Below are positions 1,197 to 53,870 of a stretch of DNA of 64,000 bases, piece after piece. Made by a program: the position numbers and the translations under genes. How positions within the stretch are numbered: position 1 is the first letter of the stretch; each line of letters starts with the position of its first letter. Under the pieces are notes generated by a model. The model did no database searches and had not been told where the DNA came from. It saw only the letters and a list, made by a program, of their open reading frames with translations. This DNA is from Candidatus Omnitrophota bacterium. GTDB lineage: Bacteria; Omnitrophota; Omnitrophia; Omnitrophales; Aquincolibacteriaceae. The stretch is from positions 13,381-77,380 of the forward strand of contig DAOPYQ010000004.1 of the NCBI GenBank assembly GCA_035352955.1. The letters run 5' to 3'.

Positions 1197-1364
1197 GATG
1201 CTCGGTCTTTTGAGACTTCCCGCAGAACAAACATAACGGACAGCAGAGTGGTAGGGAACCTAAACTTCGGGATTTTCGGGAGAGAATCGTTTTAAAGAAG
1301 ATAAAAATCTACTGCGGGTAGGAATTAGCCAATAAAAAGATGCCTGGCACGTACTACGAATATA

Positions 1365-43300: not shown

Positions 43301-46300
43301 GCTCCGGAGACCAATACCGGAAGGCGTAATTCTGCGCGAGGGATCGTTCGACAAGCTTGGGATCGATCTGGAATTTGAACGGCGTACTGGAGAACCGGAA
43401 GAAACGTGAGAACTCCCCGAGATGCGTGTCCAGATAGTCCCGGACCCCCGGGGTCACAAACGTAAAATCGTAATGGGTCCGCATTTCTAAAGACCGGAGA
43501 CCCGCATGAAAACGCGTATCGTTCAGGTGAACCTCATAGGGAAGCTTTTTCAGGCTTTCCGCTGGGATTTCGTCCCCCGCCCCGCTGCGGATAAAAAGAG
43601 TCGCCGCACCTTTTTGAAATTTCCCGGTAAAATTCCGGAGAGCTTCGTCAAATTCCTTGCGCCATTTGAGGAACGTCTTTGCGCCTGCGACCACGATCAG
43701 GGATGTTGAGGTCTTTTTTTCCGGAGCGGTCGCGCGGTTCAGCTCTGCCACCTCGACGGCAGCATCAACGCTGGTCCTACCGGGCATTTCCTCCGCCGTA
43801 AGCACGGTCTGCATGAGCGGTGAGAAGATGTCCGTCAGTCTCCGGGACATCGCCTCGCGGTGTTTAAACGGAAGCTGAGTCGGATTCCCGCTCGGACCTT
43901 TCCCATGATCGCCCATCGGAACAAGCACGGCCACGTAGGTTTTAGGATGCCCGCGGTCCTTCTCCGAAGCAAAAACCAGCGCATCCAGCAGCGCGTCGAT
44001 ATGATCCAGGTGCGGAAGCTCGAAAGTCCCCGGCAGTGCCACGATCACCTGATCGCCCGGCCTGCTCCCGGAATTTGCGGCAGGATCTTTCGCCGAAGTC
44101 CTCAGGGGAGCGGACGGCAACAACACATCTCCGGCTTCGATCCGCGACCGGAGCGTCCGCAGATTATGATTGAATTTCTTACGGATCGCCTCGAACTTTG
44201 CCATATCTTCGGACTCCGCAACGGCTCTCATCGCTTCCAACTCCTTGTTGAACCGCTCGAGGATCCCGTTCATCGCGACAAGGGATGCAGCATCGGCCTT
44301 GCGACCGGTCGGGGTCAGCCGCCCGTTCTCCCACAGAAAATTCCCGCCGTCTTCGCGCGTGATCCGGATCTTCAGGCCCCCGTCACGATCGTCTACGTCA
44401 AAGGCCCGGACCCGGTCATAAACGGCCGTGGTGTGGGTCTCGCGGTCATAGGTCGAAACCACCACCGAGTCATCCATGTTAAGAAAGACATAAACATCAT
44501 AGCGCCCCGCCAAGTTATAGTAGGTCACGGTCTTGAATGAAAACGCTTCGACTTTTTCGCCATGGCCGAACGCCCGGACCGTCCTCACCACTTCTTCCGA
44601 AAACGCGGGATTGAGCGCGTAAAAAAGGGCGTCATTAAAATAAACTTCCGGACGGTTCCTCGCATCGCCCACGTAATCCTCCCAATCCACCCAGTCGATC
44701 GACCCGACCCTCGGATCCGTCACTCGCAGATTTTTCTCCGCTTCCGGCGTGAGAAAGATCGCACCGAGGGAAGCGAACTGCCGGGAATGGATCGAGGGAT
44801 CCTCCTTGTAACGGCTATGCGTCCGGAGCCAGCCGGCGGTCCGGATCTGCATGAACTGGAACCCGCCATCTTCAAGTCCGTATTGTTCCTTTAACGCACG
44901 GCGAAGGACTTTTTCAAAACTCCCGCGGTCTTTCGGCTGATAAAGAGCCTGGACACTCAGATCGAACCGCCCCTTGCCGAGGTGAACCGACTGAGACCGT
45001 TGTCTGCGCAGGACTTGCAGCCGACCCTCCGGGCTCTTTCTGAAAATGAATCCTTGCAGGGATTCATGCCAAAGCCCCTCACGATGAACAATAGCCCTTT
45101 CCTCCACGGCAACCGAAGTTCGCGTGGCCGGATCCACCACCGGCAGTTGTTCCCTCTGGTATCCCCTCTCGCCTTCGACGGGAACGACCCTGGCCTTTTC
45201 GAGCTCGGCGATCGCAAGGCTGACGCTCTGCTCCAACGCCCCGATCTGACTCCGCACCGATTCAAACAACCGCTTCCCGGTAGGAATGCTTTTTTCCCGG
45301 CCGGTCATATCATAGTAACGGTTAAGGTCGTTCAATAACCGGTTCGCACGGGCTGCAAAATCCTTATCGGGAAAAGTCGTGTGCAACAAAAAAGCGCCAC
45401 GCGTTAGATAACGCACCAGGAATTCATCGTCAAAGAATCCGCCGACCCCGCCCTGCCCGATCTCGTCGGAATACTTTTCCCGCCTTGTGCGGGTTTCAAA
45501 AAGATGCTTGGCGTGCACGAGGACCCGCTCAACATCCGCTTTCTTGGGATCGAGATGGCTGACCGGTCCGAACAGCGTGACGGAATCTTCGATCGCCGGA
45601 TCGTACTTTTCCGAAGGGGTGGAAACCAGTAGCTCCATGCGATTGACGCGAAGATTTTTGGCAACACCCTCAGGGTAAGCCTCCGGAACCAGATCCGCGT
45701 GAAGCGTGCTCGAAAAGAATTTGACGTTCGGATGTTCGAACTCAAGCCTGAAATCGATATCACCGGGATCCCGGGGGCCGGACGTCCAACTCCCGGTCGC
45801 TTCGATACGAACGAGCCGGAAACCGCGGGCGACCATTTGATCCACATACGCCTCAAGATAGTCCGACAAAGGAACGGTTTTCCCGGGTCCAGAAGCGGCA
45901 GCGAGAGCCCCTTCAGCGACCTTCTGGACTTTGAGCCCATAATCCCCGAACTGTCCGCCGTCATAGAGATAATCACGGACCCGGACCGGGATCTGCGGGA
46001 TCTGCCGGATGAGCCTGCGCATCTTTTCCTTCTGCGACGGCGGGAGATAACGGAAAGCATACTTGTTCTCGAGAACTTCGTTGATCTGCGCGTCCGTGAT
46101 CCGGAGTTTAAACGCTTCCGCCCCCTTCGCGTTCTCTACTTTTTCTTCGCTGCGAAGCTCCGCGCGGATTGCGCCTTTCAGGATAAATTGAGCGATCGTC
46201 TTCCCGCTTTTCGAGGCTTCCTGTTTGATCCAATGGTCCGCCGCGAGCTCATCCCCGCGAAACCGACCGACGATCTTTGGGTAGGCGGGGCTGCGGACCG

Positions 46301-49300
46301 CTCGGGCATATTCCGTCGCGGTCATGCTCGCGGCCCATCCGCGGCGGCCGGGGCCCGCCAATGGGATGCTTCGGGTATGCCGCTCCCGGAATCCTTGGAA
46401 CGAAAGAAGTCCGGGATTTTGTTTGATGAACACCGAATCCCCGGTGAAAGCATCCACTCCGGTCACGGATTCGCTGAACTCGCGGCAGACCATGAACGCG
46501 AAGTAGGCGGTCTTGTTGATCCCCTGGAGCGTTTCATAGGAACGCGCGCCCTGGACAAGGATCGCGTCGCTATTCAGAACAAGATCCGCCACTTCTTCCG
46601 AAAATTCCCGGCCATTCACCGCGCCCCAAAGCGGCCCCGACCGGGAGATCTGGTATCGCCCTTCCTCGGCCATGATCCGCGACAAGGGAGCGAGCGACGG
46701 CATCGTCAGGAACTTATTAATAAAATCCATGTCGTGAGCATCGTTTCCGACGCGGATCCAGCCGGCCACGGCGTGACGCGGGACCGAGATCACCTTCAGC
46801 AGCGGATTTTCCTGGAGCATCTTCAGGATGAACAAAAGATCCAGCTGGGCTTCGCCGTAATCGTCATGAAAAACCACAAGCGTCTTGGGGGTCTTGGACT
46901 TGATGAACTGGGCTTCGAAATCCGGCCAAAAATCGATCGCCAGCGGACGGGCCGCCTTTTCGCCGAGGACTCTGAGTATCCGCTCGGACCGCGCACGGTC
47001 GGATTCCCCCGGAACATAATACGGGATGATATTGGTCGTATTGGTAATGGATGCTGCCGAAGAACTGGACTTAAGATCAAGCCCCAAAGCTCCCGCGGCG
47101 ATCGAATACCGGAAAAGCTGCTCGATCGAAAGGTTTTCCATCCGCGGCAGGATCGTTTCGATCACCTTTCCGATCTTTTCGTTAAAATCCTTGTCCGAAT
47201 AAGGAGAATTGTAGGTGTGGTGGGAAGTCAGCTTGGACATGGCCCGGGTAAAGACGTCCTGGTAGATCTGGGCCGGGATCATGTCCATGAACCGTTTGCC
47301 GGAGCCATCTCTAAGGAAGAGCAAAAGGAACACGGCATCCCCAAGGGGGATCCCCCATTCCCTTTCTTTGTCGCCCACAAATTCGAGGATCTTGTTGTAA
47401 CGAAGGCGCTCTGCGGGATCCGACTCCTTGTCGGCAGCTTTTCTCCAGCGAACGAGTTCCGCGGCGATCTGAATGCCGACCCATTTCCGGAGGTTCTGGT
47501 TATCGGAAGCCGCAAGGAAAGGCGGCCTGTGCAAACGCTCCCCCACCATAAAGGTCCCCGGCACAAAATCGGGATCGAAAAGTTGACCGATCTTTTGCGG
47601 TGACGCCGGCGGGATCAAAGGGTTCATAATACTCTCGATCATCGCTCCCGCGGACGCCTCATCGAGGCCAAGCGCCGCCGCAATATTTTTTTCAAGAAGC
47701 GTCCATCCCTCCGCGCTAAAACCTTCCCCGGACTCCGCGACTTTTTCAAGAAGATCCGCCAGTTCCGCGGCCCGGATCCCGGCGGGGACTTCCGTTGCAC
47801 CGGACGGGGCGGCAACACCTGTTTTCCTTGACGCTTCCTCCTCCGGAAGCATGCGCGTCAAAAGATCGTGCAGGAAATGCTGCTCCAGGTTCGCGATGTA
47901 GGCCGCTTTTGCGTCCTTGCCTTTTTTAAGATCGCGGCACCGCGCCATGGCTTTATCGTGCAAAGCCTTTACTTCTTCCCCGGTCAGACCCGCCCGCACT
48001 TGTCCTTCGGCGGTAAGATAAGGCTTCAGGAATTTTTTCCGGAACGAAGGAATATGGATGCCATAGCTCGCTTTCAGCTCCACACCGCTTTCCTCAAGGG
48101 CATCGGCCGGACCGGAAAGGAGGCGGTCATGATCCCCGTCCACGATCACCGGATCGCCTTCATGAAGAACGACCCCGCCCTCAAGTTCCAGGGACACGCG
48201 GCTCCCCTCCTCAACGACTTTGGCCCTCCTCAAATTGATCAGAGAAGCGATCCCGACAGACCGGGTCAATACGGCCTCGTGCGAGGAGCCGTTCCCGTAT
48301 TCAGTGACCAATGCGAAACTCGGATAACCGAGAAGCCCGATAAGGAGATCCGTGTTTTTGGTACTGCTCTTGATGTTCTTTTTAAGGGCAAACCATACGA
48401 AAGGTTTTTTCTTCGCTACAAGCTCCGGGATCCTGGCAGGATCGAATACCAGCGGCCCCCGGAAAGCGCCGGAATTGGAAGTCAGCGCCCTGGCAAGCGG
48501 CCGGACTTGAGCGCCCGCCCGAACCTTGTAGATCTTCCGCTGACCGAGCCGGGCCTGAAGCGCCTCGATCCTCGGAATCGCAAGAGTCTCGGTGATCCGC
48601 CCCTCAGCCATGTCTTCTTCAAGGTGAGCGATCTCGCCATAGATCGAAAACTTCATATTTCTCATTTGAAGAAACCACAATTTCCCGTCCACCACAGTGA
48701 ACTCAAGCTCCTGCGGAGGAAGCAGCCGGCCTTTTTTACTGCCTTTCCGTGGACGAAGCCATCCGTCGATCTTTGCCTTGGCGTCGAGGATCTGCCGGTA
48801 AATCTTGGGTGCTGCCGTCGCGAGCTCGCGGATATCCCGGCCTTCCCCCCCCTCGGTCATCAGATGCTCGCCCATGACGTTCGCTTCAAATCGGCCGACG
48901 ATACCGTCCCTGCCGTCTTTGGGGTCGCGCGTGGTAAAAGCACCCGCGAAATTCCGCAACGTTTTTCCCTTACGGGCCGACGCGTAATCGAAACCACGCT
49001 CCAGGCGCTGGATAATCAGGGGAAGATCGTACCGGTGAGGGATCCCCGCCCATTGGCGGTAGTCCCTTGCCGCATCGGTGTCCCACGCCTTGGCCGCCGC
49101 GAGAATCGCATCGATCAACCGTTCCCGCCAGTTGACGGGAAGACTAGTCAAAACGCCCGGCATGGAAACCTTCGGATTGCTGCGAACCATCAAGCTGTCG
49201 TTCGGACCGATCCCGGCCTTGGCAAGCTGTTCCTCGATCAGCGCAATGTAGGGAGATTTGCTAAGATCCCTTTCTTCTTTTGCCGAAGAAACAATCGCAC

Positions 49301-52300
49301 AAACCAATTCCGCGGAAAGCACGATCCCGGGAGGGAAATCGAGTCCCAACTCCTTCAGATGCTCAAAACCAATTTCTTTGTTCCCAGGCTTGGAATCCGG
49401 CCGGATCTCTCCCAGAATGGAAACGTTCCTCTCCACTTCATCCTTGAAGGTCAGCTCCCCGGGGAATAAAGCCCGCAGCGTACGGGCGTGACCCGCTTCA
49501 AGATAGAGCGCGACAAAATCTTCCGCGTCCTTGGGAACCTCGAGCGCTTCTTCATAAACCCCGTACGGAAAATGTCTTTCCCCGTCATTGTAAACCATCT
49601 TACGCACCTTCATGCGCGCGGTCCGAAGACCGAAACGCTCACGGAGAACGTTCAGGAGCGGATGTTTTTCAAGAGTCTCTTCCTCCCGCTCTCCGACCAC
49701 ACGAATCCCATACAAGCTGATGAACTCCTCTTCCTCCTCAAGGGTTTCAAGCCATTCCCGGACATGCTTGACCCGGAGCTCACCTTCAGAATCCCGCTTC
49801 ATCAATTCCCGGTTCTGCGCGAAAAGTTTCCGCAAGGCCACCCGGTCACAATGGGGGTTAATACTGGTCGCGAACCGGAGGATCCGTTGAAATGTTTTTT
49901 CCGACGGATCCGAAGGCTGCGCCGCTCCTCCGTCGATCAATTGCCGAAACGCCGACATCCGATCGGGGGTCAATACGTCCGGAGCCAGAGCCCCGATCAT
50001 TCCTTCAAAAAATTCCCGCAGGATGTCCCGGGCTTCCGGGCTCATGCCCGCCAGAAGACCTCCCTGAAAAAGAAAATTCAAAACATCCTGATAAAATGTC
50101 CCCTCATGTCTCACCGCAAGTTCTGCAAGAAAACATCCCGCCGCAGTGTCCCCGGCGATAGCGGCTTTCAAAAGTTGTTCGGTGTGGGAGGCATCGGTGG
50201 ACGAGACCCCGTCCGGAGGAAGATCCGCCTTCGAGACCCGGGCGCCCGTCTTCAGGCTCGAAACGATCACCCCGACAAGCTGATCCGCAAAATATTTTTC
50301 GCTGCCGGCCCCGAACGCACGATGCACCATGAGCGTGTTGGGATATTGAAACGAAGGGCTCAATTCGTAATGCCAGTGGAATTTCCCGCGAGCCACCCGC
50401 ACGACCGTTCCTTCCTTCTCACGCTTCGCCGGCTCTCCCGAGTACCAGAGGATCGGCCCCCGGAATTTGAACCGTTCCCGCAACTGCCGGATAAGCACGT
50501 CCCCGTTCATGAGCGGCATATCCGTATCCGTAATAACCAGGTCAAAGAGCCGGTCCGGGTTTCCGGAATTTTTCTCAAAGTATTCCATGGCCTCGTTTCC
50601 GTTCACGGCCATCACGACCGTCCGCTCCTCCGCGGTAAGCGTCGTCTTCAGGAGTTCACGGATATTCTCCCGGTCTTCCACGATGAGGACCCTCCGGAGT
50701 CCGGCCTTCGGGTCCACAAGCCTTAGCTCATTGGGCCGGAATTCGCCGTCGTCCGTTCGCAATTCCGCACGACGAATGTTCCCCGAAAAGGAGCTGTCCC
50801 CTTTCGTTTCCGGCTTCATTCCCCGAAAAGGATCATTCAACTGCGACAAGAGTCCGCCCGGAGCCTGTACGATCTCAAAAAGAGAGTAAGACTCTCCCTT
50901 AAAATCCGCCTCATCTGCTGTTTGATATTCGAAACCGTCGATGCCGTTCGCGGCTCCGCGGGCATACCGGGTCTTGATCAGCCAGTAACGACCCGTGCTG
51001 GTTTCCAGAAGAAAGGAGTCGGCATTTACCCGTTCCCTGACCGGAGCCACCCTGACGTGAAGAACTTTTCCGAGGCGGGGCATGCGCGGCTCGAACCATT
51101 CGGAAAGATACCGGCCACGCAATTCCAGAAGATTCACGCGTCCGAAATCATTATTCAAAAACAGGAACTGCCCCGCGGCATACCACAAATTGTATTTCAG
51201 GAACAAACCGGCCCACAGACTCCCGGGATCAAAAGCCATGACAACAAGAGCCCCGGCAGCCACGAACAGATTCCCCAAGGTTCCCGCCGAGCTGATCCCC
51301 AAGAACCAACGCTGCGGGATCCCCGTCGCGGAGGACTCGGTAAATTTCACCTGCCAGCCCAACCAATCGATCTTGAGATTCTTCAGCGGTATTTCCGGCC
51401 ATGAAATCGCGTTCAGATATCGGGCCGTAAGGTAGTGGAAAATTTCATGCACGTAGATGCTTATTAGAATTGCAGCCACCCATGGCATCGAAACGAACGC
51501 ACCGATCAGCAGCAGATCGAAATAATTGACCAGGTATTTTCCGATATCGGAACGGCCCTTGAAACCCTTGGCCGTTAAAATAACCCGCCGCGATAAAAGA
51601 GACCCCGTCATGATCCCGAAACCTTCGCGGACGGCTAGAAAGAAACTCAGTTTCGAAAGGGTCTGAAGGATCCCTCCCGGGACATCTCCCGCAAAAACCA
51701 TCGCGGCGCCAAGCCCCAGGAATACAGCCACCGGAACGCCGCCCATTTCAGAAAATTTCTTTCCAACATTTTTAGCCTTTTCGCGCAAGGCAGCCCCGAA
51801 CGCCGGCTTTCGGGGCGCCGGTTCCATCTCTCCCTTCATCCCGACCCTGTGAAAACCGTATTCGATGCCCTCGTAAAGGATCCATGCAATCAACCCCGCA
51901 GCAATGCCCGAACTTCCCAAAAACAATCCGGCGCCCACAACATACCAGAGCCCTGAAAATTTCCGGTAATAGCCAAAACCTTCAGCGCTCGTCCACCGGA
52001 AAACGAACCGCTTCCACTGTTCTTTCAGCCAGTTTCCTTTCTCCGGCACATCCTTGGCGACGGAAGTCACATCCTTTGTTTCGCGTAACTCTGCACGAGA
52101 TTTTTTCACAACAACGGAGGGCGCTCCCTTTCCGAGCAAACGATCCAACGTCCCGAGATCGGTCCCGGGATGAACGCGCAAAGCTTCATAGACCGCACGA
52201 ACCTCAGCGCGCCCGTTAAGGGAAGGGTGGAAAACCGGCAAGACCCTCGCCGCGGTGGCAAGGACCGACACAAAAGGTTTTTCAAAAGAGAGGAAGCCTT

Positions 52301-53870
52301 CCGTCATGAGCTTGTTGTAATAACCTTCGTGGCGGAGGCTGGGCTTCGTGATCTTCGGACTGACGACCCCATACGAGATCCCCTTGGATTCGAGAATGCG
52401 TTTGATGTTCTCCTTGTGGAAACCGCCGTAGATCAAAATTGCCGGCAGCAATTTTGAGTCCGACGTTCGACGCGCAACGGCCGACGTATCGTTGCGCGTT
52501 GTGCGTTGCGCGTTGCCCGAGAGAAAATATTCATCCAGCCTTTTCGAAATCGCTCCATCGCGCTCCGCCGCGATCTCATAGAATTTCACCGCTTCCCGGA
52601 TATTCCGTTCCCATTGCCGGGAAAGAACAATCGGCTTTTTCACGTTCGCATGAATAAATTCGCCCAACGACCGGGTATTGAATGTCCTGAGCGCCTGCCG
52701 GACCACCTCGTACTCCTCTTGCGAGACCTGAAGATCGCTGAGGCGTCCGAGAAGACAAAGAGTCTTGTAATGCCCGAAAAGTTCTTTATCACCCGCCCCG
52801 GCAAGATACGCCTCCGCAAGAGACTCATCCAACTTCGAAAGTTCGGCAAAAACCTCCCGTGCATCGATATGCTTCGCTTTTTCGATGACGACAGGATCGT
52901 TTGTTTTAACAGCCTCGAGAATGAAGCTCACCAGGGGCACCGTCGCCCCGGACAACCCCCGGAGTTTGACTTGGGACCCCTGAGATCGATGGCCAGGTGT
53001 TGATCCGGGCGAAAGCAACATTGTTCTGCTTAGATAAGTGAACAGATCCAGTTTCTTCGCATCGAACTGCTCCCTTAGCCTGAGCCATTCGCGGAATTCC
53101 TTCGGAAAGCGCGCATCCGTGAGCAAGCGGACCTCTTTTTCAAGGGCCCTCAGGTCTTTTGCGATCGCCTCTTTCTTCTCCGCGGAGAACCGGTACTGGT
53201 CGACGTTCTCTTTGTGGAGTTTCAGACTGTCCGCACCGATAAGCGTCCAATCAGGATATCGGATGCCGGATGTCGGATGTCGAAAAGCCGGGCTGTCGTC
53301 ATCCGTCATCCTATATCCGTCATCCGTTTTTCTGTTAATGTGCGCATATTCGGCGCCGCCGATGCGGAGATGATCGAGAAAAAAATAGGAGACCTTGCGC
53401 TTCAACTCGGGATCTTTGATGAAACCGAAAAATTCCCCGGTGGGAACCGGACCTTCATAACCTTCCTCAAAAACCGTTCGAACTCCATAGTTCTCAGTCA
53501 GATGTTTGATGATCTTCGCGATGCTCTCCTGGGCTTCAAGAGAGTCGTGCGCGTCCTGAACGTAAATTACGGCAGGGAGATCAGAATTCGGGGTTCGGAG
53601 TGTTGTCTTTGCGCTGTGTGTTTCGCGCTGAGCTCGGTAAACTTCGCTTATCGTGCCAAGTTCGGGAGGGAGCCAGCGGCTTTCATCGATCAGGGGTTGG
53701 CCGGAAAGCGCGGTTGGCTTTTCCCCTCCCGGAACTATGGATTTTATCGGAGTATTAGCAAGCGCTTGCGACGGAAATGAGCAGATCTCGGAAAAAAGAA
53801 AGAGCACCGCAACGAGCATTGCGATGCTCCGGATCGCCGTCCCTTTTTTCGATAAAAATAGCCTGTTCAA
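22368..53870 (-). CDS. giant (10,500 aa) signal-peptide-bearing multi-enzyme protein / candidate polyprotein: M50-like HExxH membrane module followed by about 20 enzyme and signalling domains punctuated by RAE[LM]R motifs
   Basis: A 31.5 kb uninterrupted ORF. TTG start at 53870. MNRLFLSKKGTAIRSIAMLVAVLFLFSEICSFPSQALA is a canonical signal peptide. Individual domains are listed as separate features. Confidence 0.85.
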   Translation of the reverse strand: MNRLFLSKKGTAIRSIAMLVAVLFLFSEICSFPSQALANTPIKSIVPGGEKPTALSGQPLIDESRWLPPELGTISEVYRAQRETHSAKTTLRTPNSDLPAVIYVQDAHDSLEAQESIAKIIKHLTENYGVRTVFEEGYEGPVPTGEFFGFIKDPELKRKVSYFFLDHLRIGGAEYAHINRKTDDGYRMTDDDSPAFRHPTSGIRYPDWTLIGADSLKLHKENVDQYRFSAEKKEAIAKDLRALEKEVRLLTDARFPKEFREWLRLREQFDAKKLDLFTYLSRTMLLSPGSTPGHRSQGSQVKLRGLSGATVPLVSFILEAVKTNDPVVIEKAKHIDAREVFAELSKLDESLAEAYLAGAGDKELFGHYKTLCLLGRLSDLQVSQEEYEVVRQALRTFNTRSLGEFIHANVKKPIVLSRQWERNIREAVKFYEIAAERDGAISKRLDEYFLSGNAQRTTRNDTSAVARRTSDSKLLPAILIYGGFHKENIKRILESKGISYGVVSPKITKPSLRHEGYYNKLMTEGFLSFEKPFVSVLATAARVLPVFHPSLNGRAEVRAVYEALRVHPGTDLGTLDRLLGKGAPSVVVKKSRAELRETKDVTSVAKDVPEKGNWLKEQWKRFVFRWTSAEGFGYYRKFSGLWYVVGAGLFLGSSGIAAGLIAWILYEGIEYGFHRVGMKGEMEPAPRKPAFGAALREKAKNVGKKFSEMGGVPVAVFLGLGAAMVFAGDVPGGILQTLSKLSFFLAVREGFGIMTGSLLSRRVILTAKGFKGRSDIGKYLVNYFDLLLIGAFVSMPWVAAILISIYVHEIFHYLTARYLNAISWPEIPLKNLKIDWLGWQVKFTESSATGIPQRWFLGISSAGTLGNLFVAAGALVVMAFDPGSLWAGLFLKYNLWYAAGQFLFLNNDFGRVNLLELRGRYLSEWFEPRMPRLGKVLHVRVAPVRERVNADSFLLETSTGRYWLIKTRYARGAANGIDGFEYQTADEADFKGESYSLFEIVQAPGGLLSQLNDPFRGMKPETKGDSSFSGNIRRAELRTDDGEFRPNELRLVDPKAGLRRVLIVEDRENIRELLKTTLTAEERTVVMAVNGNEAMEYFEKNSGNPDRLFDLVITDTDMPLMNGDVLIRQLRERFKFRGPILWYSGEPAKREKEGTVVRVARGKFHWHYELSPSFQYPNTLMVHRAFGAGSEKYFADQLVGVIVSSLKTGARVSKADLPPDGVSSTDASHTEQLLKAAIAGDTAAGCFLAELAVRHEGTFYQDVLNFLFQGGLLAGMSPEARDILREFFEGMIGALAPDVLTPDRMSAFRQLIDGGAAQPSDPSEKTFQRILRFATSINPHCDRVALRKLFAQNRELMKRDSEGELRVKHVREWLETLEEEEEFISLYGIRVVGEREEETLEKHPLLNVLRERFGLRTARMKVRKMVYNDGERHFPYGVYEEALEVPKDAEDFVALYLEAGHARTLRALFPGELTFKDEVERNVSILGEIRPDSKPGNKEIGFEHLKELGLDFPPGIVLSAELVCAIVSSAKEERDLSKSPYIALIEEQLAKAGIGPNDSLMVRSNPKVSMPGVLTSLPVNWRERLIDAILAAAKAWDTDAARDYRQWAGIPHRYDLPLIIQRLERGFDYASARKGKTLRNFAGAFTTRDPKDGRDGIVGRFEANVMGEHLMTEGGEGRDIRELATAAPKIYRQILDAKAKIDGWLRPRKGSKKGRLLPPQELEFTVVDGKLWFLQMRNMKFSIYGEIAHLEEDMAEGRITETLAIPRIEALQARLGQRKIYKVRAGAQVRPLARALTSNSGAFRGPLVFDPARIPELVAKKKPFVWFALKKNIKSSTKNTDLLIGLLGYPSFALVTEYGNGSSHEAVLTRSVGIASLINLRRAKVVEEGSRVSLELEGGVVLHEGDPVIVDGDHDRLLSGPADALEESGVELKASYGIHIPSFRKKFLKPYLTAEGQVRAGLTGEEVKALHDKAMARCRDLKKGKDAKAAYIANLEQHFLHDLLTRMLPEEEASRKTGVAAPSGATEVPAGIRAAELADLLEKVAESGEGFSAEGWTLLEKNIAAALGLDEASAGAMIESIMNPLIPPASPQKIGQLFDPDFVPGTFMVGERLHRPPFLAASDNQNLRKWVGIQIAAELVRWRKAADKESDPAERLRYNKILEFVGDKEREWGIPLGDAVFLLLFLRDGSGKRFMDMIPAQIYQDVFTRAMSKLTSHHTYNSPYSDKDFNEKIGKVIETILPRMENLSIEQLFRYSIAAGALGLDLKSSSSAASITNTTNIIPYYVPGESDRARSERILRVLGEKAARPLAIDFWPDFEAQFIKSKTPKTLVVFHDDYGEAQLDLLFILKMLQENPLLKVISVPRHAVAGWIRVGNDAHDMDFINKFLTMPSLAPLSRIMAEEGRYQISRSGPLWGAVNGREFSEEVADLVLNSDAILVQGARSYETLQGINKTAYFAFMVCREFSESVTGVDAFTGDSVFIKQNPGLLSFQGFRERHTRSIPLAGPGRRGWAASMTATEYARAVRSPAYPKIVGRFRGDELAADHWIKQEASKSGKTIAQFILKGAIRAELRSEEKVENAKGAEAFKLRITDAQINEVLENKYAFRYLPPSQKEKMRRLIRQIPQIPVRVRDYLYDGGQFGDYGLKVQKVAEGALAAASGPGKTVPLSDYLEAYVDQMVARGFRLVRIEATGSWTSGPRDPGDIDFRLEFEHPNVKFFSSTLHADLVPEAYPEGVAKNLRVNRMELLVSTPSEKYDPAIEDSVTLFGPVSHLDPKKADVERVLVHAKHLFETRTRREKYSDEIGQGGVGGFFDDEFLVRYLTRGAFLLHTTFPDKDFAARANRLLNDLNRYYDMTGREKSIPTGKRLFESVRSQIGALEQSVSLAIAELEKARVVPVEGERGYQREQLPVVDPATRTSVAVEERAIVHREGLWHESLQGFIFRKSPEGRLQVLRRQRSQSVHLGKGRFDLSVQALYQPKDRGSFEKVLRRALKEQYGLEDGGFQFMQIRTAGWLRTHSRYKEDPSIHSRQFASLGAIFLTPEAEKNLRVTDPRVGSIDWVDWEDYVGDARNRPEVYFNDALFYALNPAFSEEVVRTVRAFGHGEKVEAFSFKTVTYYNLAGRYDVYVFLNMDDSVVVSTYDRETHTTAVYDRVRAFDVDDRDGGLKIRITREDGGNFLWENGRLTPTGRKADAASLVAMNGILERFNKELEAMRAVAESEDMAKFEAIRKKFNHNLRTLRSRIEAGDVLLPSAPLRTSAKDPAANSGSRPGDQVIVALPGTFELPHLDHIDALLDALVFASEKDRGHPKTYVAVLVPMGDHGKGPSGNPTQLPFKHREAMSRRLTDIFSPLMQTVLTAEEMPGRTSVDAAVEVAELNRATAPEKKTSTSLIVVAGAKTFLKWRKEFDEALRNFTGKFQKGAATLFIRSGAGDEIPAESLKKLPYEVHLNDTRFHAGLRSLEMRTHYDFTFVTPGVRDYLDTHLGEFSRFFRFSSTPFKFQIDPKLVERSLAQNYAFRYWSPERRHKVREVVRHIPEIPVEVRPHLWVNEDFGDVFKKAQKATEDSLYAKASQVAPGNETRYVSLSRYMEAFVHEMQERGFRMVRLEAFGSWVGRARVPSDFDLILEFRHPSSKLFQGNLKARLLPELFPDALPAYHKPFQMDLFIMAGNSEFHPAIMDSVTLMGEPSAAEPTALETNDVLKYADFLYNRRMLERSFGVAIDGDHMDFFEDDYIARYLTRSAYILQSFFPDRGFSERANRLLDMLDGFFDFKGDPGARTKLGREIQGYMEALGKDVGAALDELRARSERKESRAELRRQEPYKDPVFAMSRTRDVGQGIRGPSHGEMLLKSLGSDQLQADIAKAFEGWTPDEIRRLFDEYQLGELRAISFFTHNEKTLPVLETSKGKFCIKPITDLDPVGKETQMLFVAEVIHRNLQRGVPIPVIYRSGEKDAEHLIFRIKGGSVDAVRYFMVERWIAGYRSIKREEATPEMMGEVARWLARIHSATAGVRETEWPKLNRWVRDHAFDDMENSRRIFRENIRKNYPPEDSALILSLLDEAFPKVREALRKISRQPINSDINFANLFFDDAGKIREIIDWEASRFGYRIEDFTGLLFRSGRGGAKAYVHGTAEELLRALKAYQKEAGTSRLSDEELDILPWFFLVDFLDTLYFRDRGGVFGEGQRSPSVQASVMQTIRRIQKDFAPYFSGGRSLSQDLRRAELRSRGGFAVFEDGRPVILKIYSAKDGKTVFATKDYKEYFGKVYTDVADFLRDRKIDQAKAGEVIRSDQQSIVIGIPSAYSGGTEEETKAYAKKRVAFFETVLNSLKILRRESAKQEKNWNAELVINVNGLEQGAYLAAVLQFQKERSTSEIPVTVIHMPLAGRLHGREYVEIFGRQVFDPRVVSVATRIQDALNGFWEKRHDPRRIEWVKKYREIFSGKTNAVNAIVEYARDNAKATILGLMDDDIGISDKNILSNVLFLIDSAKGNNAMKRVSPVMTTSRGQLGPSQSEWDEKWWPERNRAPMGPSMFSFLFAFPPLPSYPINEDVYLGRIYYEDESVPRAMCGWRVIENPSGDAVFRWSAATNFRSGYIQNYRYELGDRWLTSLRGKEKQKYRPAHYGPGAIFGFWKSRAVRDPVSGKIRVGETYRKYKDFFWNRQIRINYQVFFELLFRRIFHLPLLTTHWATTVPAESKTVAPDGVREGGVVTPRAEMRNGDVRIQEEILEQAEVIVWDFDNTIFGVEEVWEAMEAQIIAKIWVKNASEMITGELLAEARRFFQESLGISDEQRFTLAAQRVSSSLDEAATIGKKYATEYFLVQDAYVQKRLAEWKTNMEQYLIPGALENLDEYHRRGIKQYLLSGNHYLTRKILDELGLSKYFVNLINAREWPYSGEFSKATALERLSEENQNPTMMVIGDGLGEIKAAQKVAAGRQRRIYTVALLRPKTEKEMQKLQPSVLLSGSFPNAYDLANQLNLRRNFDLPKSEGSAGTVPGTPGTLTRARAKEARAEIRLGERAREEAVAVLNKALGDARDEQEVARKAGKEKSVAYIQITVNEIQEALTGLAAPGNVNEAVMRTVKTYVPDLEVEKFDLVSSEALRLIREGNPALGLKPNPDRARHMIRAERFFRALATGNTEYFVRRLASGTSDADKEGYRQNLRRLKAYFETFTPAERTEMWLEIKLHDTGYTSGATDAGHEERGGIFAEQFIRGELSLPSARAEAVSRLIRRHMSVGLLSLGELRYQKFMEGLDEKGFLKLVLHNIVDASAVLSDSMVYYPARLATVVGWFDPKTRQQSLEVYDQYRFEKLAKTSGNSEKDLTPGEILSLNAMIRKIFGQEEEMLRKQWRDAIDMRYRLVSVPTRLVKYDASYKRFAKWMRLLAHVSLLVPGGETVFTGNLLSREYPPLEIEDAMERIAIKVAADMDRIPEDSDLTAVQAQFRELPENKRVEIYGIPFVRNGNEVLIDVASLFDEVGPQAVRAELRSEPGDDVQAMASKLKGLPTLYANFPKAHNFNQRWHQEGRYLQDHIGAMLKALRKIEGPHFRDPRVPWQAIIFIRRLANENRARIEAACFGHDIGKVTKYQAKKMAVGDIEQSYSFHEHENDSYEVLSKNPVRYGDLDISGDSVLLLSIKHHALGYSLEKLDGLVAFVRDLRRAGITEQKEIERACEFLIALATLDMMGSYLDAEGRDLDMTGISRLIGTYERYVKTEVDPAVLAQADRINFKAQHFSRSMAQVLPAARKKVEAGILRNLLPAITDFYNSGRWKKYRNPGEELIQRVEGSGDLMRALRETHFFDSPEFLFGVVRRHFLSPRPVLEKGRMPRNRFAHKTIGFAPLPGSPEGEDLEKGRDFMEDAVSAVTEHFSDGKVELPGVKMNRFQYAVLRTYRMFGPTVIGHILYTGLVPLGIVVMTYLGLHLFGVSMGHESIGAEFLVGVGMTRFIFNALEKKVEQFGEDWEKHSREQILISLALGVTAEKKRQNGEKYEIYFRDIKELYLAGSASVTPSSKKLDLELLEEIKTVVWKGLDLNEKYFLAAREGYQLALQGGGVDLRAITVAMLAEIASHNRPYFDRLTADWTRESRRNYFQHILASVLGREHEAFHPELSAALMPLASFAKVMTSQDALDELVENEIVAEVTAGTLVPELIGERQVLPPRIVDAKKTSFLTDRRPEYNERFIKRLISKIRSAPNSEDRQAFILAYSSKLLSRLTSIEERIAQDLPVEKDKLERLLLKTELWADGLREFQAGPEADQRIERVTRVLNSLAASLSSERGRAELRSGTWDEVKGAFSERLRQLPPRGVLLVAGPSATGKSWMLNEFDALMAAQGRKIEWVPEDRYFKPEAECPLRNGKPDFDHIDAYDLAAVARTVQKFHEDGTAVIPASTFGKPEPAREPVLGSKDVIGVEGLHTLHPKLTAAVASDVPVLKVYLDTPWQIRFMRRLWRDVTERQFKDPFRTLALWDNVAAGEKDFVEPTKANADFVIRRGSDEEARELGVKTREFREALSKRPEVLARKDYQEVLSSLEDYLKTLLVVRAELRSEGVVSEGLQDRAKLESSMRQVMNYVAAYPFRAFPFSSMVKVGGMVVDQNGKGVSLAVNGLGQQHAERMAIVDALDKIFQARQTAGVRFEDAEKIKTTIDYLRFSLKISRYFPEADLPLFTWVNDRLGDPMGSMTLFVTMAPCEWCEKLIMSAGIKNVVYGYSAQRAAGREPNQRLIDNGIRVTGGILFNELYAQNRLAHLFASRASVIYTAVKSLQHHFHARYVRFLFGEQFDALTRKLRNFDRPDRAELRSGFVKSGGAWWQRWRDAFVRGEQDKMEVIARIHREKILKIYGDALAAVRGASHGAAATAHLQKARAFMLTQLDGLLREYRENIAKEGFADISMKVWKLDMASRFRGICEGLRKEDLRVTSEVVEVAKELSPEEAEAVKSFISGISELHFERPVRTILIADDEANFRSDHEAGIRSLGRSEIKTVSVKDGKEMFDYLKEHAGEVDLILSDVSMPLDDLKFRLDEENAARLRGEDFRTVRERWNGNHVALRFRKELGIRTPIIFISGVWLDKEELAGIGNTLPFPKGHVTPQTLALILKPLIEQSENVRAELRNGEEIPGMYLEGRSDIAEAFRRLGVSDEEASKNMERFKDRDLLWGEVVEAADLPFSVLVVAKKMKVRTWRSDSDPRTLCVAVKDGKVTPVFEEKPFRGMVSGLHFYRISTDRIRLFMVRYDRDHKRSLLYAREVVIEKPASRWNALWRKSEKEIVPGPVEFPHKLEKKTGATDWNAEPVPEGESFDPFDFIQGKLQFRFFGQKYALDPGAPVLTPVPLERAERQSNLVNSNTFPPAARDGRRAERRLPYSADVTFQFRPRGIDESDIEAVYLAGSFNDWKAAPEFKMRSGTRKGETEWMITSRLKEGTYEYKYLVKLKNGQELWVSYPDDFLNSERDQTGSQNYFRHVGPTLGWPPREEPIKGSPRKVNASVNLRGISVEKRAELLEAEAKDGKTRIHIGTATLSDGWELPEAEQKGLAPYAAVIAEKINRALVPVSLEYLELPGDMAPTRHFASFEYDYFLVVDKAAEKDVRDFISELSKAARWSGDLGRYVFVHPYNGTEDDLVEQVAEKILRANGPAEGKSIVRVAPGRFWVEQSNLLVSVEEAPAKMLRFPERVDQHPVLTTVKDRLEIPEASMVTEGSWGYVQEGVHSDRIETQTYLIVPAQYEAEVMRYFRTGKTSQERKMEQIAGIVRLLGDREQEKRVQAARAFKQLPETRESLEAIVETFVTMAHFVPPYTGWASSEHFTSHEVIGFFVEVIVGKDRSIVSDKMLNDLVSGLISEDPYVQEISFGILRVFVSGDWERLMRVKRILEPVAEKIVKSGNLRIALATEAISTERSHNVDSWHMLEGPKILVALHRKKIPADLESAVVEAGYYERSESHYSEDKMRLTLVFPAEKTIPVFLCLILGAWSASEDVQSRIFGIDLQGDFKELYGFMKGINPGLDLVAFEKARDQFLEARKKNPVKDEKGRFRLGPSTQYEEYVRYADSFEPRVERVEDHPFLKLLEKFYGIFGCGYVEKERRALQRFEGGWKSVGDDFLVPSGKHDLFIEMMLVLGEEAMENLLRGTGKSVAGMQPMDAEALKRSLSEKGIPGAEVDGSLMAIFRVAQGVNPGLDLKLLYETYTKVKKGMVQPSRAEDGLSTVRSSGEQVYKIDEWEEFYGLLDYSASKVLDTRKDKKVRFTFLHDPSCEALRRDFHVPQAYRVIERECEIDYEVNRHLGHVTEQEMTQVTSEYADFAAFYFAAGDETVRRIVFPPVPEQSLEERLKDLGIQESPDERFTAIYRAAIKINPKLDLKALFELYQIGKSHLRVLEPAEEAGMVVIITQSDSTRLDTPEDDARFLEGLPQGTKKVMEGPFLVFLKEKFGIRNAYLKYYRNIEDWDSTRHYMMGVAVDSLVVPEEFGDLMELYYSADSILLRRILLGEYSDVEAKVDAGVRQLGKGIYQRGMGNKEAGFLIFEKLGLPYPPGIALSAELASVLAGIQYEERPVYDAFIKRQLNRIGIKIHSGGYEDLIVRSNPKRSMPGILESIRTFNNPVSEIQTAAKAWESPKAKVYRKREGIPDAYDLPLIVQKFESGKADPFGQYDGKRARKEPVALCMAGAFSTRDPNTNGAGLFGRYSENADGSELMTNGKLGEDLNALAQVAPEIYTQLVDAAKKLEDVVGPQEVEFVVNHGKLYFVQTRRINFATQAEIAYIREQLAANKITEARAIPQLEKLQERLGSRKLYRVRDVVAAKPVATAPAATPGAMQGHLAWSVDRARELIREGKPVIFVAREKDQDELLALLFEYSRSGLLTLGYGNASSHEAVLSRLSGIPSLINVAGTRLDEQTIVLENGQKLREGDVVVVDGDHQSLFVTGEDVLEENGVALDASYGIHIPEFKQEFLKAYLQTDGSIKPEFTVPRLVELNQQAEEKFKTVQNSPDKKAVFTANLEKHFIHELLGRRKSEPDGVREREAETLRAEMREEQISHQRNPAERLNTALKMAEDIIRDPFVLGKYGIGANEAVVLAQFLTSASYEHPSIGKAVRLIYDHIRDIYIMGASRLVVYAMLTKLRTGGAITEEQYRLIEKPFSLEDSRRDVAGKKIEIRSSEDIDEASSAACWTVQYFDATGRPVLSFGYTAPTIFFNSHDDQRNQLDKAPTEKRYSAGDYSVEPVQNLRKLLETVSSEYDDAAVEGVVLWLYEGNILRRIDDLLSLYDVGTDKYKANLVRVLAEIGTEYTDQLANSLKDKTELQTRDMLAAQVQANSRERGVGDHARGAAKTNKTVASPQVPDSDPARAELRSIASEDVFKAFGAPMPKLVKVVVLDADFTLWGEAVSEVGPEGVRLTEEFLAVQKKVLALKERGILLVISSRNTPKDVEAVFAQRPEMALRRQDLAGIWADDRNKAEHLKEIAEKLHLGLDSFVFLDDSPFERARVRQAFPEVLVPELPASPSEWPRILDDFIPPQSGSLTPEARNRTRLYEDQKRREQGWEVAKSVRQSFNDYLRGLGMAVEIFEETPASSRIDRVVELFERANRFNMTGRTFTREDLVDRLSGEHGTYRVFSLQQKDREGDQGIVAVMVVDCNGPVPVIESFCQSCRAWVGGMGGKVENLFMAYVVGKLGKAVGYYMPSEKNQGVKDVYARMGEGVVPVDVPGSDRKGFLFDRTTARIRVPDWFSMPDSVRGVVLSAGVLVANAQNEFRAEKRDAIDKNRLIKGWIRAYQSMARRGDLQNREKLAKALRRMGEMALPMIQTEIQRGNFEFIAVLDDAYLADPRLTSALIRAMEDKNADLSGRLGAAKVLGARGVEMPKVLSLLLNSAYRDNTAWDNLVRLVRNDARRGEVVDLLIKTVEDNMDVMDYGRQFNRIVELRMAAKVLGEIGPGAQRAVPSLMRLVKRKADSWAQENALKSLVAIDTEKKTVMSVLLDCQAHSSSEDVQAKASELLKIVNGEGLKRLPQKQERLERSGKDQGVDKYSTIDPFVRRLREGDSSERKVAVADLEKLGPDAFEALPALIETGQKYPDLKSEVFRALDAITFDRAFRYEVLGFDAGDLGITYSLHQVAVPADVNLEANTAAMPEESSNQRIEEMIRTVSGAIDAILPFLNQGPAVKRPERVRALLKWHSDIPMFDHLLFSRFPEMVRQLDDPEVFFAALEIERALVGHYVENLEFDFEIYCRDYGSHLGSFSVFLPAASQPLFDVYAPLFKEKDDLKRFIMAFAADIVAGRVSQVTGRQELAALFATHIQKMEKTGMVSDQPDGVREGGVVPPRAEMRRENSATLNAQSSTKEKGSTLRVARGPANAAEGRFMDGVPSQNVFFAIDARSLEVLGTVKGDRRWNELLALKGIYGKELNLVVTGKVSKKTEAKLRELESFGGHVFTESNAMQIPGNAQVIYFTGDAAANLQSLSQRLRQKVKAVFQGLQEGDFIAGVELSWSSYLDEAISRTGSLRQFIADRLGFNASRALEILFDAYVVISSAA
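22981..23040. repeat. about-60-nt intragenic DNA repeat, copy A (encodes PDGVREGGVVPPRAEMRR)
   Basis: tccctccgcatctcggcgcgagggggcacaacccctccctcgcggacgccgtccggttg. It shares a 19-nt exact core ctcgcggacgccgtccggt with copies at 26856 and 39720. Confidence 0.6.
23900..24700 (-). other. HEAT / PBS-lyase-like helical repeats
   Basis: Repeated LxxLLxDxDxxVRxxAxxALGxIG-type units: AAKVLGARGVEMPKVLSLLLNSAYRDN, AAKVLGEIGPGAQRAVPSLMRLVKRKADSWAQENALKSLVAI, VAVADLEKLGPDAFEALPALIETGQ. Confidence 0.45.
25500..25895 (-). other. HAD-superfamily IIIC / FkbH-like phosphatase domain (HAD 2)
   Basis: KVVVLDADFTLWGEAVSEVGPEG...LLVISSRNTPKDVEAVF...DLAGIWADDRNKAEHLKEIAEKLHLGLDSFVFLDDSPFERARV, compared with the FkbH-like consensus LDLDNTLWGG...SKN.E.DV...WxPK..NL..IA..LNLGLDSFVFxDDNP.ER. 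Confidence 0.55.
26856..26912. repeat. intragenic DNA repeat, copy B (encodes PDGVREREAETLRAEMRE)
   Basis: ttcctcccgcatttcggcgcggagggtctcagcctctctctcgcggacgccgtccggttc. Confidence 0.55.
27100..28700 (-). other. pyruvate-phosphate-dikinase-like phosphotransferase module 2 (paralogue of module 1)
   Basis: LGLPYPPGIALSAELASVLAG (28321-28380). VRSNPKRSMPGILES. CMAGAFSTRDPNTNGAGLFGRYSENADGSELMTNG. EFVVNHGKLYFVQTRRINF. GYGNASSHEAVLSRLSGIPSLINV (27301-27360). Confidence 0.6.
28855..29990 (-). repeat. three protein-level copies of an unknown domain of about 180 aa carrying [FY]xxx[IV]NP[GK]LDL
   Basis: YGFMKGINPGLDLVAFEKARDQF (about 29960), IFRVAQGVNPGLDLKLLYETYTK (about 29420) and IYRAAIKINPKLDLKALFELYQI (about 28890). 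Confidence 0.4.
31600..31780 (-). other. CBM48 / AMPK-beta glycogen-binding-domain-like carbohydrate-binding module
   Basis: VYLAGSFNDWKAAPEFKMRSGTRKGETEWMITSRLKEGTYEYKYLVKLKNGQELWVSYPDD, compared with the CBM48 consensus VxLxGSFNNW...GxHxYKFxVDG.W. Confidence 0.55.
32700..33050 (-). other. response-regulator receiver (REC) domain 2
   Basis: RTILIADDEANFRS...VDLILSDVSMPLDD...TPIIFISGVWLDKEE. Confidence 0.5.
33780..34140 (-). other. cytidine/deoxycytidylate-deaminase-like zinc-binding domain
   Basis: HAERMAI (34025-34078) and PCEWCEKLI (33825-33865), that is HAE...PCxxC. The spacing is about 75 aa, longer than canonical, so this is a moderate call. Confidence 0.45.
34400..35000 (-). other. 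uridine-kinase / phosphoribulokinase-like P-loop kinase
   Basis: Walker A LLVAGPSATGKSW (34921-34980) directly after the RAELRS linker. ...DRYFKP...KPDFDHIDAYDL resembles the PRK/Udk family. Confidence 0.5.
36050..36260 (-). other. internal transmembrane helices in the middle of giant 2 (about aa 5860)
   Basis: FGPTVIGHILYTGLVPLGIVVMTYLGLHLFGVSMGHESIGAEFLVGVGMTRFIF. Confidence 0.45.
36800..37300 (-). other. HD-domain phosphohydrolase 2
   Basis: EAACFGHDIGKVTKYQAKK (37080-37175) and later LSIKHHALGYS. Confidence 0.5.
38000..38500 (-). other. HD-domain phosphohydrolase 1
   Basis: EIKLHDTGYTSGATDAGHEERG (38281-38343) shows the H...HD...H/D arrangement. Confidence 0.45.
39050..39690 (-). other. 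HAD-superfamily hydrolase domain 1
   Basis: Motif I VIVWDFDNTIF (DxD) lies immediately after the RAEMRN linker. SGNHYLTRKILDELGL follows, and motif IV is MMVIGDGLGE. Confidence 0.55.
39720..39780. repeat. intragenic DNA repeat, copy C (encodes PDGVREGGVVTPRAEMRN)
   Basis: atccccattccgcatctcggcccggggagtcacaacccctccctcgcggacgccgtccggtg. About 90% identical to copy A over about 55 nt. Confidence 0.6.
41250..42380 (-). other. aminoglycoside-phosphotransferase / choline-kinase-like (protein-kinase fold) domain
   Basis: KFCIKPITDL...FRIKGGSVDAVRYFMVERWIAGY...PINSDINFANLFFDDAGKIREIIDWEASRFGYRIEDF shows a Brenner-type D....N catalytic loop and an IDWE (DFG-equivalent) motif. Confidence 0.5.
43981..44061 (-). 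other. cytidylyltransferase-like (HxGH) nucleotidyltransferase motif
   Basis: QVIVALPGTFELPHLDHIDALLDA, compared with the GTFDxxHxGH signature of the CoaD/NadD/TagD superfamily. Confidence 0.35.
45250..46050 (-). other. Pol-beta-superfamily nucleotidyltransferase module 1 with helical C-domain (KNTase-like)
   Basis: RIEATGSWTSGPRDPGDIDFRLEF (45737-45815) is a GS...D.D minimal NTase motif. A paralogous copy lies at 42988-43078 (RLEAFGSWVGRARVPSDFDLILEF). Both are followed by similar helical domains (DSVTLFGP... / DSVTLMGE... and YLTRGAFLLHTTFPDKDFAARANRLLNDL / YLTRSAYILQSFFPDRGFSERANRLLDML). Confidence 0.55.
48050..49750 (-). other. pyruvate-phosphate-dikinase / PEP-synthase-like phosphotransferase module 1 (ATP-grasp N-domain plus phosphohistidine swivel domain)
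   Basis: VRSNPKVSMPGVLTS matches PPDK VRSGAxxSMPGMMDT. RNFAGAFTTRDPKDGRDGIVGRFEANVMGEHL matches RGxAFxFTRNPxTGE...GEYLxNAQGEDVV. EFTVVDGKLWFLQMRNMK matches DIEFTIExGKLWMLQTR. GNGSSHEAVLTRSVGIASL (48241-48300) matches the PEP-utilising mobile domain GGxTSHAAIxAREL with a presumed phospho-His. Confidence 0.65.
50345..50690 (-). other. response-regulator receiver (REC) domain 1 in giant 2
   Basis: RVLIVEDRENIRELLKTTL...VMAVNGNEAMEYF...LFDLVITDTDMPLMNGDVLIRQLRE. The acidic pair, the phospho-acceptor Asp (ITDTDMP) and the later K are all present. Confidence 0.6.
51150..52000 (-). other. polytopic membrane region with intramembrane HExxH (zinc-metalloprotease-like, S2P/M50-like, tentative) in giant 2
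   Basis: Hydrophobic helices GLWYVVGAGLFLGSSGIAAGLIAWILY, VPVAVFLGLGAAMVFAG, LLLIGAFVSMPWVAAILISIYVHEIFHYL and LGNLFVAAGALVVMAF. The HEIFH codons are at 51435-51449. Confidence 0.4.

Follow-up and report, generated by a model that had tools for sequence, protein, structure and literature searches.

A probable, highly divergent site-2-protease-like cassette within a 10,500-residue protein of Candidatus Omnitrophota

The window analysed here is a stretch of 64,000 nucleotides from a Candidatus Omnitrophota bacterium (assembly GCA_035352955.1, contig DAOPYQ010000004.1, positions 13,381 to 77,380 of the forward strand). It contains a giant open reading frame (ORF) in which an N-terminal domain is followed by a long series of enzyme cassettes. 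Pfam domains along the protein are Response_reg (twice), PPDK_N with PEP-utilizers (twice), ARMT1-like, APH, HAD, HD, PRK/uridine kinase, dCMP deaminase, CBM20/AMPK-CBM and HEAT. An identical but truncated copy of 6,726 residues (P0001), an NCBI gene call with the same start codon, is present in the metagenome-assembled genome (MAG) GCA_035403665.1. The subject of this report is the cassette that follows the N-terminal domain, a polytopic, hydrophobic block carrying the pentapeptide HEIFH, an instance of the metalloprotease motif HExxH. Hydrophobic segments were defined as peaks of at least 1.6 in Kyte-Doolittle profiles of 19 residues, and the label transmembrane (TM), as used here, rests on hydropathy together with homology to the site-2 proteases (S2P; peptidase family M50). 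The cassette and the elements around it are as follows:

22368..53870, minus strand: giant ORF, 10,500 residues, with a signal-peptide-like start, a weakly Tiki/ChaN-like N-terminal domain, and enzyme cassettes separated by the pentapeptide R[AS]E[LMVI]R
53760..53870, minus strand: N-terminal signal-peptide-like segment, residues 1-37, with K8, K9 and R14, a hydrophobic core, and ALA at 35-37
52101..53759, minus strand: conserved N-terminal domain, residues 38-590, with the invariant pattern DAH..EEG..GAEYAH..GGFH..H
52083..52097, minus strand: RAELR, residues 592-596, the cassette boundary motif on the upstream side
50772..52082, minus strand: whole S2P-like cassette, residues 597-1033 (437 residues), made of an amphipathic lead-in, five hydrophobic helices and a C-terminal soluble domain
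51876..51941, minus strand: helix 1, residues 644-665, mean hydropathy 1.94, conserved in the homologue P0002
51669..51746, minus strand: helix 2, residues 709-734, mean hydropathy 1.55, conserved in P0002
51435..51512, minus strand: helix 3, residues 787-812, ending H808-E809-I-F-H812; Pfam, hhalign and the RseP match all pair it with the HExxH helix of M50
51336..51383, minus strand: loop, residues 830-845 (the LKIDWLGWQVKF region), which the hhalign alignment places between the HExxH and AGP helices, where S2P enzymes have their membrane-reentrant beta-loop
51228..51296, minus strand: helix 4, residues 859-881, with A862-G-T-L-G-N867, the counterpart of M50 AGPxxN; G863 is invariant in all four copies
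51144..51212, minus strand: helix 5, weakly hydrophobic, residues 887-909, ending N906-N907-D908-F909, with D908 at 51147-51149
50781..51098, minus strand: C-terminal soluble beta-rich domain, residues 925-1030, kept in all four copies with the pattern FLLRT.TG.YW..K ... Y.L[FY]E[IL]..P
50757..50771, minus strand: RAELR, residues 1034-1038, the boundary motif on the downstream side, after which Response_reg occupies residues 1061-1146

HEIFH spans residues 808-812, exactly nucleotides 51435-51449, and ends a hydrophobic helix in a polytopic block of the giant ORF, as the original prediction had placed it. Hydropathy segments are found at residues 12-37, 644-665, 709-734, 787-810 (which runs straight into HEIFH) and 859-886, with a weaker helix at residues 887-909. 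From composition, 0.28 HExxH motifs are expected in the whole protein and 0.007 in or beside a hydrophobic 19-mer. The placement of the motif in a hydrophobic helix and its invariance in three distant homologues are more than chance.

A full HMMER search with residues 597-1033, covering 1.84 billion protein representatives, gave the first of these homologues: it returned the giant itself and one relative, P0002, only. P0002 is the 3,964-residue product of a complete gene, whose 115-kb contig shows ordinary chromosomal surroundings. Over its entire extent the cassette is homologous to residues 1594-2018 of P0002 (31% identity); the similarity starts just after RAELR-592 in the window and RSEVR-1589 in P0002, and stops just before RAELR-1034 and RSEMR-2019, respectively. 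The contexts of the two copies are not the same: in the window, the cassette lies after the N-terminal domain and before a receiver domain, whereas in P0002 it lies after an APH-like cassette and before a Nudix cassette. Two more distantly related copies come from an uncultured MAG locus, L024 (residues ~2633-3297, flanked by RSEIR and RSEVR; 22% identity), and from L082 (JGI metagenome contig Ga0080064_1000545, locus span 1-8909; 48% identical to L024), the ORF pieces of both running off the ends of their loci. No fifth copy is present in 1.36 Mb of related Omnitrophota loci. Scans of GTDB genomes and of NCBIfam with the module gave no match, nor did a first metagenome pattern scan with a three-copy alignment; word-index searches with the module and with a three-sequence alignment also gave no match, and did not recover the giant protein itself either.

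The four copies share the HExxH helix, the loop that follows, a helix with [AS]G[PT], an Asp-containing segment and a soluble C-terminal domain of ~120 residues. Invariant in the four-sequence alignment are HExxH itself, the glycine in [AS]G[PT], and a single Asp that follows HExxH at a distance of about 100 residues; in the giant this Asp is D908, at the end of helix 5 and 100 residues past H808. The helix-4 motif reads AGTLGN in the window (residues 862-867), AGPLAE in P0002, SGPSAT in L024 and SGPLAT in L082, and the invariant Asp stands in the contexts NNDFG, TGDFK, YSDGA and FSDWA. The C-terminal domain (residues 925-1030) has no Pfam match, no PDB sequence match and no known family. The conservation of these motifs, the boundaries of the cassette and its rarity are established observations, as is the remote homology to M50 set out below.

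Pfam scans of the four copies gave Peptidase_M50 with E-values of 0.36 (window), 0.012 (P0002), 0.39 (L024) and 0.19 (L082). M50 was the sole match for the window and L024 and the top match for P0002; for L082, it came third behind two weak, unrelated matches. For P0002 and L024, the match covers positions 4-106 of the profile, a span that begins at the HExxH helix and reaches that of AGPxxN. The same scans, run with E cut-offs of 1 (window) and 10 (remaining three copies), showed no M48, M56 (PF01435, PF05569) or other membrane-protease family; M50 was present as a weak match in all copies. A search of PDB sequences with the single module found no match, whereas a profile built from three copies, run against 177,635 PDB sequences, found one chain, the RseP orthologue 7w6y_A (E 1), through HExxH and AGPxxN.

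Profile-profile comparison was made against 60 genuine M50 proteins, retrieved by starting from the one canonical M50 ORF (L071) in the related loci. Using hhalign, the three-copy profile matched this set with a probability of 94.5% (E 7.7e-8, 79 columns), and a four-copy profile gave 94.6%; across the two comparisons, E was ~7e-8 over 79-81 columns. Reversed profiles gave 0.1-0.2%, and block-shuffled templates in which the HExxH block was kept gave 15-62%, with scores of 31-40 compared with 55.7 for the real alignment. These controls indicate that the signal exceeds that of the HExxH pentapeptide alone but is moderate. In the reciprocal direction, of the 2,040 non-self ORFs in 1.36 Mb of Omnitrophota DNA, the one that best matched the module profile was L071, the single canonical M50 ORF among them (E 0.024). 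The proposal that the region is of S2P/M50 type holds as remote homology, through weak Pfam matches in 4/4 copies, the hhalign probability and RseP as the only PDB match, but not as Pfam-defined family membership, all Pfam scores being below threshold.

The counterpart of AGPxxN lies in the confident part of both the hhalign and the RseP alignments. The third M50 motif is less clear. In an extended hhalign alignment, FLF-LNNDFGRV falls on NLIPIPPLDGSRV, and in a permissive or global alignment YNLWYAAGQFLF-LNNDFGRV is paired with FNLGLAVFNLIPIPPLDGSRV, which puts D908 on the Asp of LDG, although in a low-confidence tail. The LDG-type motif expected of a site-2 protease would be present in a degenerate form only, with the invariant D908 in NNDFG retained and the Pro, Leu and Gly absent.

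Known M50 enzymes (E. coli RseP, B. subtilis SpoIVFB and M. jannaschii S2P (mjS2P); PF02163) resemble the module in having HExxH at the end of a TM helix, followed by xxxA(R/K). The module also has a loop at the position of their membrane-reentrant beta-loop, a helix of small residues with AG(P/T)xxN, an Asp ~100 residues downstream that closes the third helix, and an appended soluble accessory domain, where RseP has PDZ and SpoIVFB has CBS. It differs from them in sequence and build: NxxPxxxLDG is replaced by [QN]FLFxxxDF (window, P0002) or PxNxxSD[GW] (L024, L082); there are two extra N-terminal helices and a novel C-terminal beta-rich domain; and the module is a motif-bracketed cassette inside proteins of 3,964 residues (P0002) to 10,500 residues rather than a free-standing enzyme. 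The M48 (Ste24/HtpX) and M56 (BlaR1) families likewise comprise membrane-embedded or membrane-anchored HExxH zinc proteases, but their third zinc ligand is a Glu in a soluble region and not an Asp ending a later TM helix.

We propose that residues 597-1033 form a self-contained cassette that is a very divergent member, or sister, of the S2P (M50) fold and that serves as a membrane anchor and an intramembrane or juxtamembrane protease; we put the probability of this reading at roughly 0.6. On the sequence evidence, the module would be distantly homologous to the S2P core, keep its metal ligands and probably be active. We infer its zinc ligands, activity, topology and substrate as follows. Helix 3 would contribute H808-E809-x-x-H812, helix 4 the AG(T/P)xxN turn and helix 5 D908. 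H808, H812 and D908 would together hold one zinc ion within the plane of the membrane and E809 would serve to activate water, which is the arrangement of RseP, SpoIVFB and mjS2P.

In RseP-type M50 enzymes, the HExxH end of the helix and the loop after HExxH face the cytoplasm. By analogy, the exported, Tiki/ChaN-like N-terminal domain would lie outside, helices 1-2 would return the chain to the outside, and helices 3-5 would form the three-helix S2P core, ending inside with the active site at the cytoplasmic face. Five crossings would make the module N-out and C-in, a topology proposed by S2P homology only, and would leave inside both the C-terminal beta-rich domain and the ~9,500 residues that follow, with their kinase, phosphatase, receiver and nucleotide-metabolism domains. 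A C-in arrangement is favoured because the downstream domains (Response_reg, PPDK_N/PEP-utilizers, APH, HAD, PRK and dCMP deaminase) need ATP or nucleotides. From the proposed topology and active site, it would follow that the module is both the membrane anchor of the giant and a protease, whose candidate substrate would be a membrane helix, either in its own polypeptide or in a different protein.

Several results weigh against this reading. The Pfam M50 scores (10.6, 15.5, 10.5 and 11.5 bits for the window, P0002, L024 and L082) are far under the gathering score of 27.2, and the module does not qualify as a Pfam-defined M50 member. The HExxH helix alone supplies 31-35 of the 55.7 hhalign score units, as judged from the block-shuffle controls, and single-sequence hhalign probabilities are low (33%, 24% and 1.4%). 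The LDG-type motif, in which the canonical Pro, Leu and Gly are missing, is aligned only in the low-confidence tail, and MAFFT misplaces it when M50 sequences are included. An AlphaFold2 model from an alignment of the window and P0002 sequences has a mean predicted local distance difference test score (pLDDT) of 34.6; it shows strands at the loop of residues 830-845, which at pLDDT <50 are suggestive only. Structure prediction with M50 sequences added to the alignment was rejected as circular, and MAFFT had in addition misaligned the third motif. As regards topology, the positive-inside rule is not decisive (nine Lys plus Arg on each side of helix 1, eight before helix 3), and many complete relatives of the giant contain radical-SAM or NAD-epimerase domains although the N-terminal segment is their only TM-like one. 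Three such relatives, of 2,562-2,799 residues, each with a signal-like N-terminus and no later hydrophobic segment, are:

Locus L009, 9959-18058: carries a radical-SAM domain
Locus L022, 9893-17581: carries an NAD-epimerase/dehydratase domain
Locus L072, 9968-18367: complete relative of the same build

Sec export of the whole chain is difficult to square with the domain content of the L009 and L022 proteins, and the compartment of the cassettes is for this reason uncertain in the family itself. TM predictions for giant Omnitrophota proteins have been called unreliable (bioRxiv 10.1101/2023.11.21.568195).

A rival reading is that the module is unrelated to S2P, a polytopic membrane segment or the hydrophobic core of a soluble domain with an accidental HExxH, its M50 matches reflecting composition and the pentapeptide. 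Every database match is under the curated threshold, more than half of the hhalign score comes from the HExxH block, and the AlphaFold2 model provides no structural confirmation. We nevertheless regard such an origin as distinctly improbable. The similarity to M50 is collinear over three motifs, each on one of three consecutive helices and spaced much as in M50, with 100 residues from H808 to D908; the reversed controls are close to zero, the best reciprocal non-self match is a true M50 ORF and the sole PDB match is RseP; and a TM-adjacent HExxH, rarely expected by composition, is conserved in all four copies.

A different view is that the module derives from S2P but is an inactive pseudo-protease, retained only as a membrane anchor or scaffold. 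The degenerate NxxPxxxLDG, with no Pro and with DF for DG, would fit such a loss, as would the extreme rarity and fast evolution of the module (22-31% identity between copies), together with scores that are all sub-threshold. Other members of the family use unrelated TM cassettes, and anchoring alone may be the selected function. However, the H, E and H of the motif and the downstream Asp are invariant in 4/4 copies in spite of divergence to 22%, the pattern of a retained metal site, and we therefore consider an inactive module unlikely and the S2P-like protease the better account.

The original prediction also described a second membrane block and a resulting topology puzzle, in which successive enzyme blocks would lie on opposite sides of the membrane. 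The feature in question is:

36039..36200, minus strand: second hydrophobic block, residues 5891-5944, inside the cassette of residues 5483-6271 that also holds the HD domain

This block lies ~5,080 residues after HEIFH, and not ~5,800 as had been stated, the latter figure being its distance from the N-terminus. It had been described as a pair of hydrophobic helices at 36050-36260. A hydrophobic block is indeed present and contains a strong stretch of 32 residues (5891-5922) with GLVPLG in the middle, but the second stretch, residues 5926-5944, is marginal, with a mean hydropathy of ~1.3 (calculated by hand) and with E and R within it. One additional hydropathy peak, at residues 7931-7951, contains E and K. 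The same Pfam families are found on both sides of the second block (Response_reg at residues 1061-1146 and 6944-7001; PEP-utilizers at residues 1853-1914 and 8810-8893), which suggests that both sides share a compartment and argues for a hairpin or a buried, non-spanning element. The puzzle of opposite sides is thereby softened, as it is by the N-out/C-in topology suggested by S2P homology. No homologues of the cassette that holds the second block were found in the family loci. The same cassette contains a second HExxH, HEAFH (residues 6096-6100; 35581-35595), in a hydrophilic setting. It has no family match, is compatible with chance at the rate expected per protein, and was discarded.

The pentapeptide that brackets the cassette recurs throughout the giant and its relatives. 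The giant carries 16 copies of R[AS]E[LMVI]R against 0.27 expected (for example, at 52083-52097, 50757-50771 and 46152-46166), and no other ORF in the window has one. In the family (the window giant and loci L002-L081), 363 copies occur in 81 proteins (230,439 residues) against 3.8 expected, the commonest forms being RSEVR, RSELR, RSEMR and RAELR, with unconserved flanks. The sites sit at the boundaries of homologous cassettes that are shuffled between proteins. Their codons vary synonymously, which points to selection at the level of the peptide; a role for RAELR in recombination at the DNA level was dropped on this ground.

All motif-bearing proteins have just one element in common, the N-terminal domain, which is for this reason a candidate partner of the pentapeptide. 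It is 42% identical to that of P0002, is present in at least 118 copies in GTDB Omnitrophota genomes, with several per genome, and the loci of its relatives are nearly all labelled Omnitrophota, the remainder being unclassified MAGs. PF04187 (ChaN, Tiki superfamily) was matched by 4/32 members (best E 1.8e-5), a weak similarity of the domain to the Tiki/ChaN superfamily. By inspection, the N-terminus of the giant shows the n-, h- and c-regions of a Sec signal peptide, and a comparable hydrophobic segment precedes the domain in 54/81 family sequences.

The presence of a plausible protease domain and of so many boundary sites in one polypeptide makes an autoprocessing polyprotein an obvious idea, and the original prediction had put it forward: the module would cut at RAE[LM]R and free soluble and membrane-bound products. 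The excess of sites over expectation, their position at cassette boundaries and the selection on the peptide are all consistent with it, and post-translational cleavage has been proposed for Omnitrophota giants, the cleavage points being stated as unknown (West-Roberts et al., bioRxiv 10.1101/2023.11.21.568195). The distribution of the module speaks otherwise. It is present in only two of the 81 motif-bearing proteins (the window giant and L024), P0002 and L082 having been found elsewhere; about 77 of 80 relatives sampled are without it, and complete relatives with 2-7 motifs do not have it. Conversely, the module occurs in L082, whose 2,969 residues contain no canonical R[AS]E[LMVI]R, only variants such as RAEER at the expected boundary. 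Since the motif is family-wide without the module, the module is not a general enzyme for R[SA]E[VLMI]R, if these sites are cleaved at all. In addition, known S2P enzymes cut within or beside membrane-associated hydrophobic segments; the RAELR sites, charged and hydrophilic, are found in soluble linkers that are thousands of residues away from the membrane, and are unlike known S2P substrates. Autoprocessing at RAELR is not supported, an intrinsic protease that cuts the polyprotein is unlikely for this module, and as an explanation of what the module does we hold it to be highly improbable.

A broader, speculative reading leaves the S2P-like protease in place and moves the cutting elsewhere. 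The giant and its relatives might be undescribed chromosomal polyproteins of Omnitrophota, in which a signal peptide and a Tiki/ChaN-superfamily N-domain would come first, followed by enzyme cassettes that are freely shuffled and each delimited by R-[SA]-E-[VLMI]-R. The pentapeptide would be a dedicated processing site cut by the N-domain, which is universal, or by an enzyme acting in trans, and rare cassettes, the S2P-like one among them, would sort membrane products by deciding which of them stay in the membrane or leave it. We offer this as a doubtful but conceivable scheme; if true, it would supply the cleavage map lacking so far for giant Omnitrophota proteins.

Known site-2 proteases are separate regulatory proteins whose action frees transcription factors from membranes. 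The novelty here is an S2P-like core used as an interchangeable cassette within a multi-enzyme protein of 10,500 residues, in a phylum that is poorly understood and probably dependent on hosts, and the module is a new, highly divergent form of a known kind of protease in an unusual fused context. Should it prove active, it would be the first case of an intramembrane protease incorporated into a giant protein, and a candidate control over the membrane attachment of ~9,500 residues of enzymes. The giant matches the 'multi-enzyme metabolic cluster' class of Omnitrophota giants (bioRxiv 10.64898/2026.06.07.730766), with which it shares the taxon, an architecture of signal peptide plus TM segments and many enzyme Pfam families, including response-regulator receiver, kinases, NUDIX and radical SAM. 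Proteases discussed for Omnitrophota giants are C39 and S8 (bioRxiv 10.1101/2023.11.21.568195); by term search, M50 and site-2 are absent from both of these preprints, and 'Tiki' and 'motif' are absent from the former (bioRxiv 10.64898/2026.06.07.730766), the only one searched for these two terms. In the literature searched, variants of the pentapeptide have not been linked to such giant proteins. The family-wide punctuation is of higher interest than the module itself: R[SA]E[VLMI]R gives domain boundaries with which the giants can be dissected and folded piecewise, whereas published work lacked cleavage or boundary points.

The neighbours of the giant gene are ordinary housekeeping genes: hrcA-grpE-dnaJ directly downstream, with gpsA and genes for a FadL-type porin, an FtsH-like AAA/M41 protein and uvrA also nearby. 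The two genes just upstream are:

54212-55591, minus strand: 459-residue gene with one sub-threshold Pfam match and no significant family
55602-57269, minus strand: FtsH-like AAA+/M41 protease gene, 555 residues

Neither is kept beside other members of the family, and a conserved neighbouring protease gene was set aside on that basis. A second very long ORF of 4,526 residues (2123-15703, minus strand) has matches to right-handed beta-helix and RHS repeats and no R[SA]ExR motif, and is a giant protein of a different kind within the same window.

Within the giant itself, three copies of the pentapeptide are preceded by the near-identical peptides GVREGGVVTPRAEMR, GVREGGVVPPRAEMR and GVREREAETLRAEMR (39729-39760, 22986-23017 and 26853-26884), and two PPDK-like cassettes (residues 1510-2044 and 8555-8989) both match one cassette of P0002. 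Together, these two observations point to internal duplication of cassettes in the giant.

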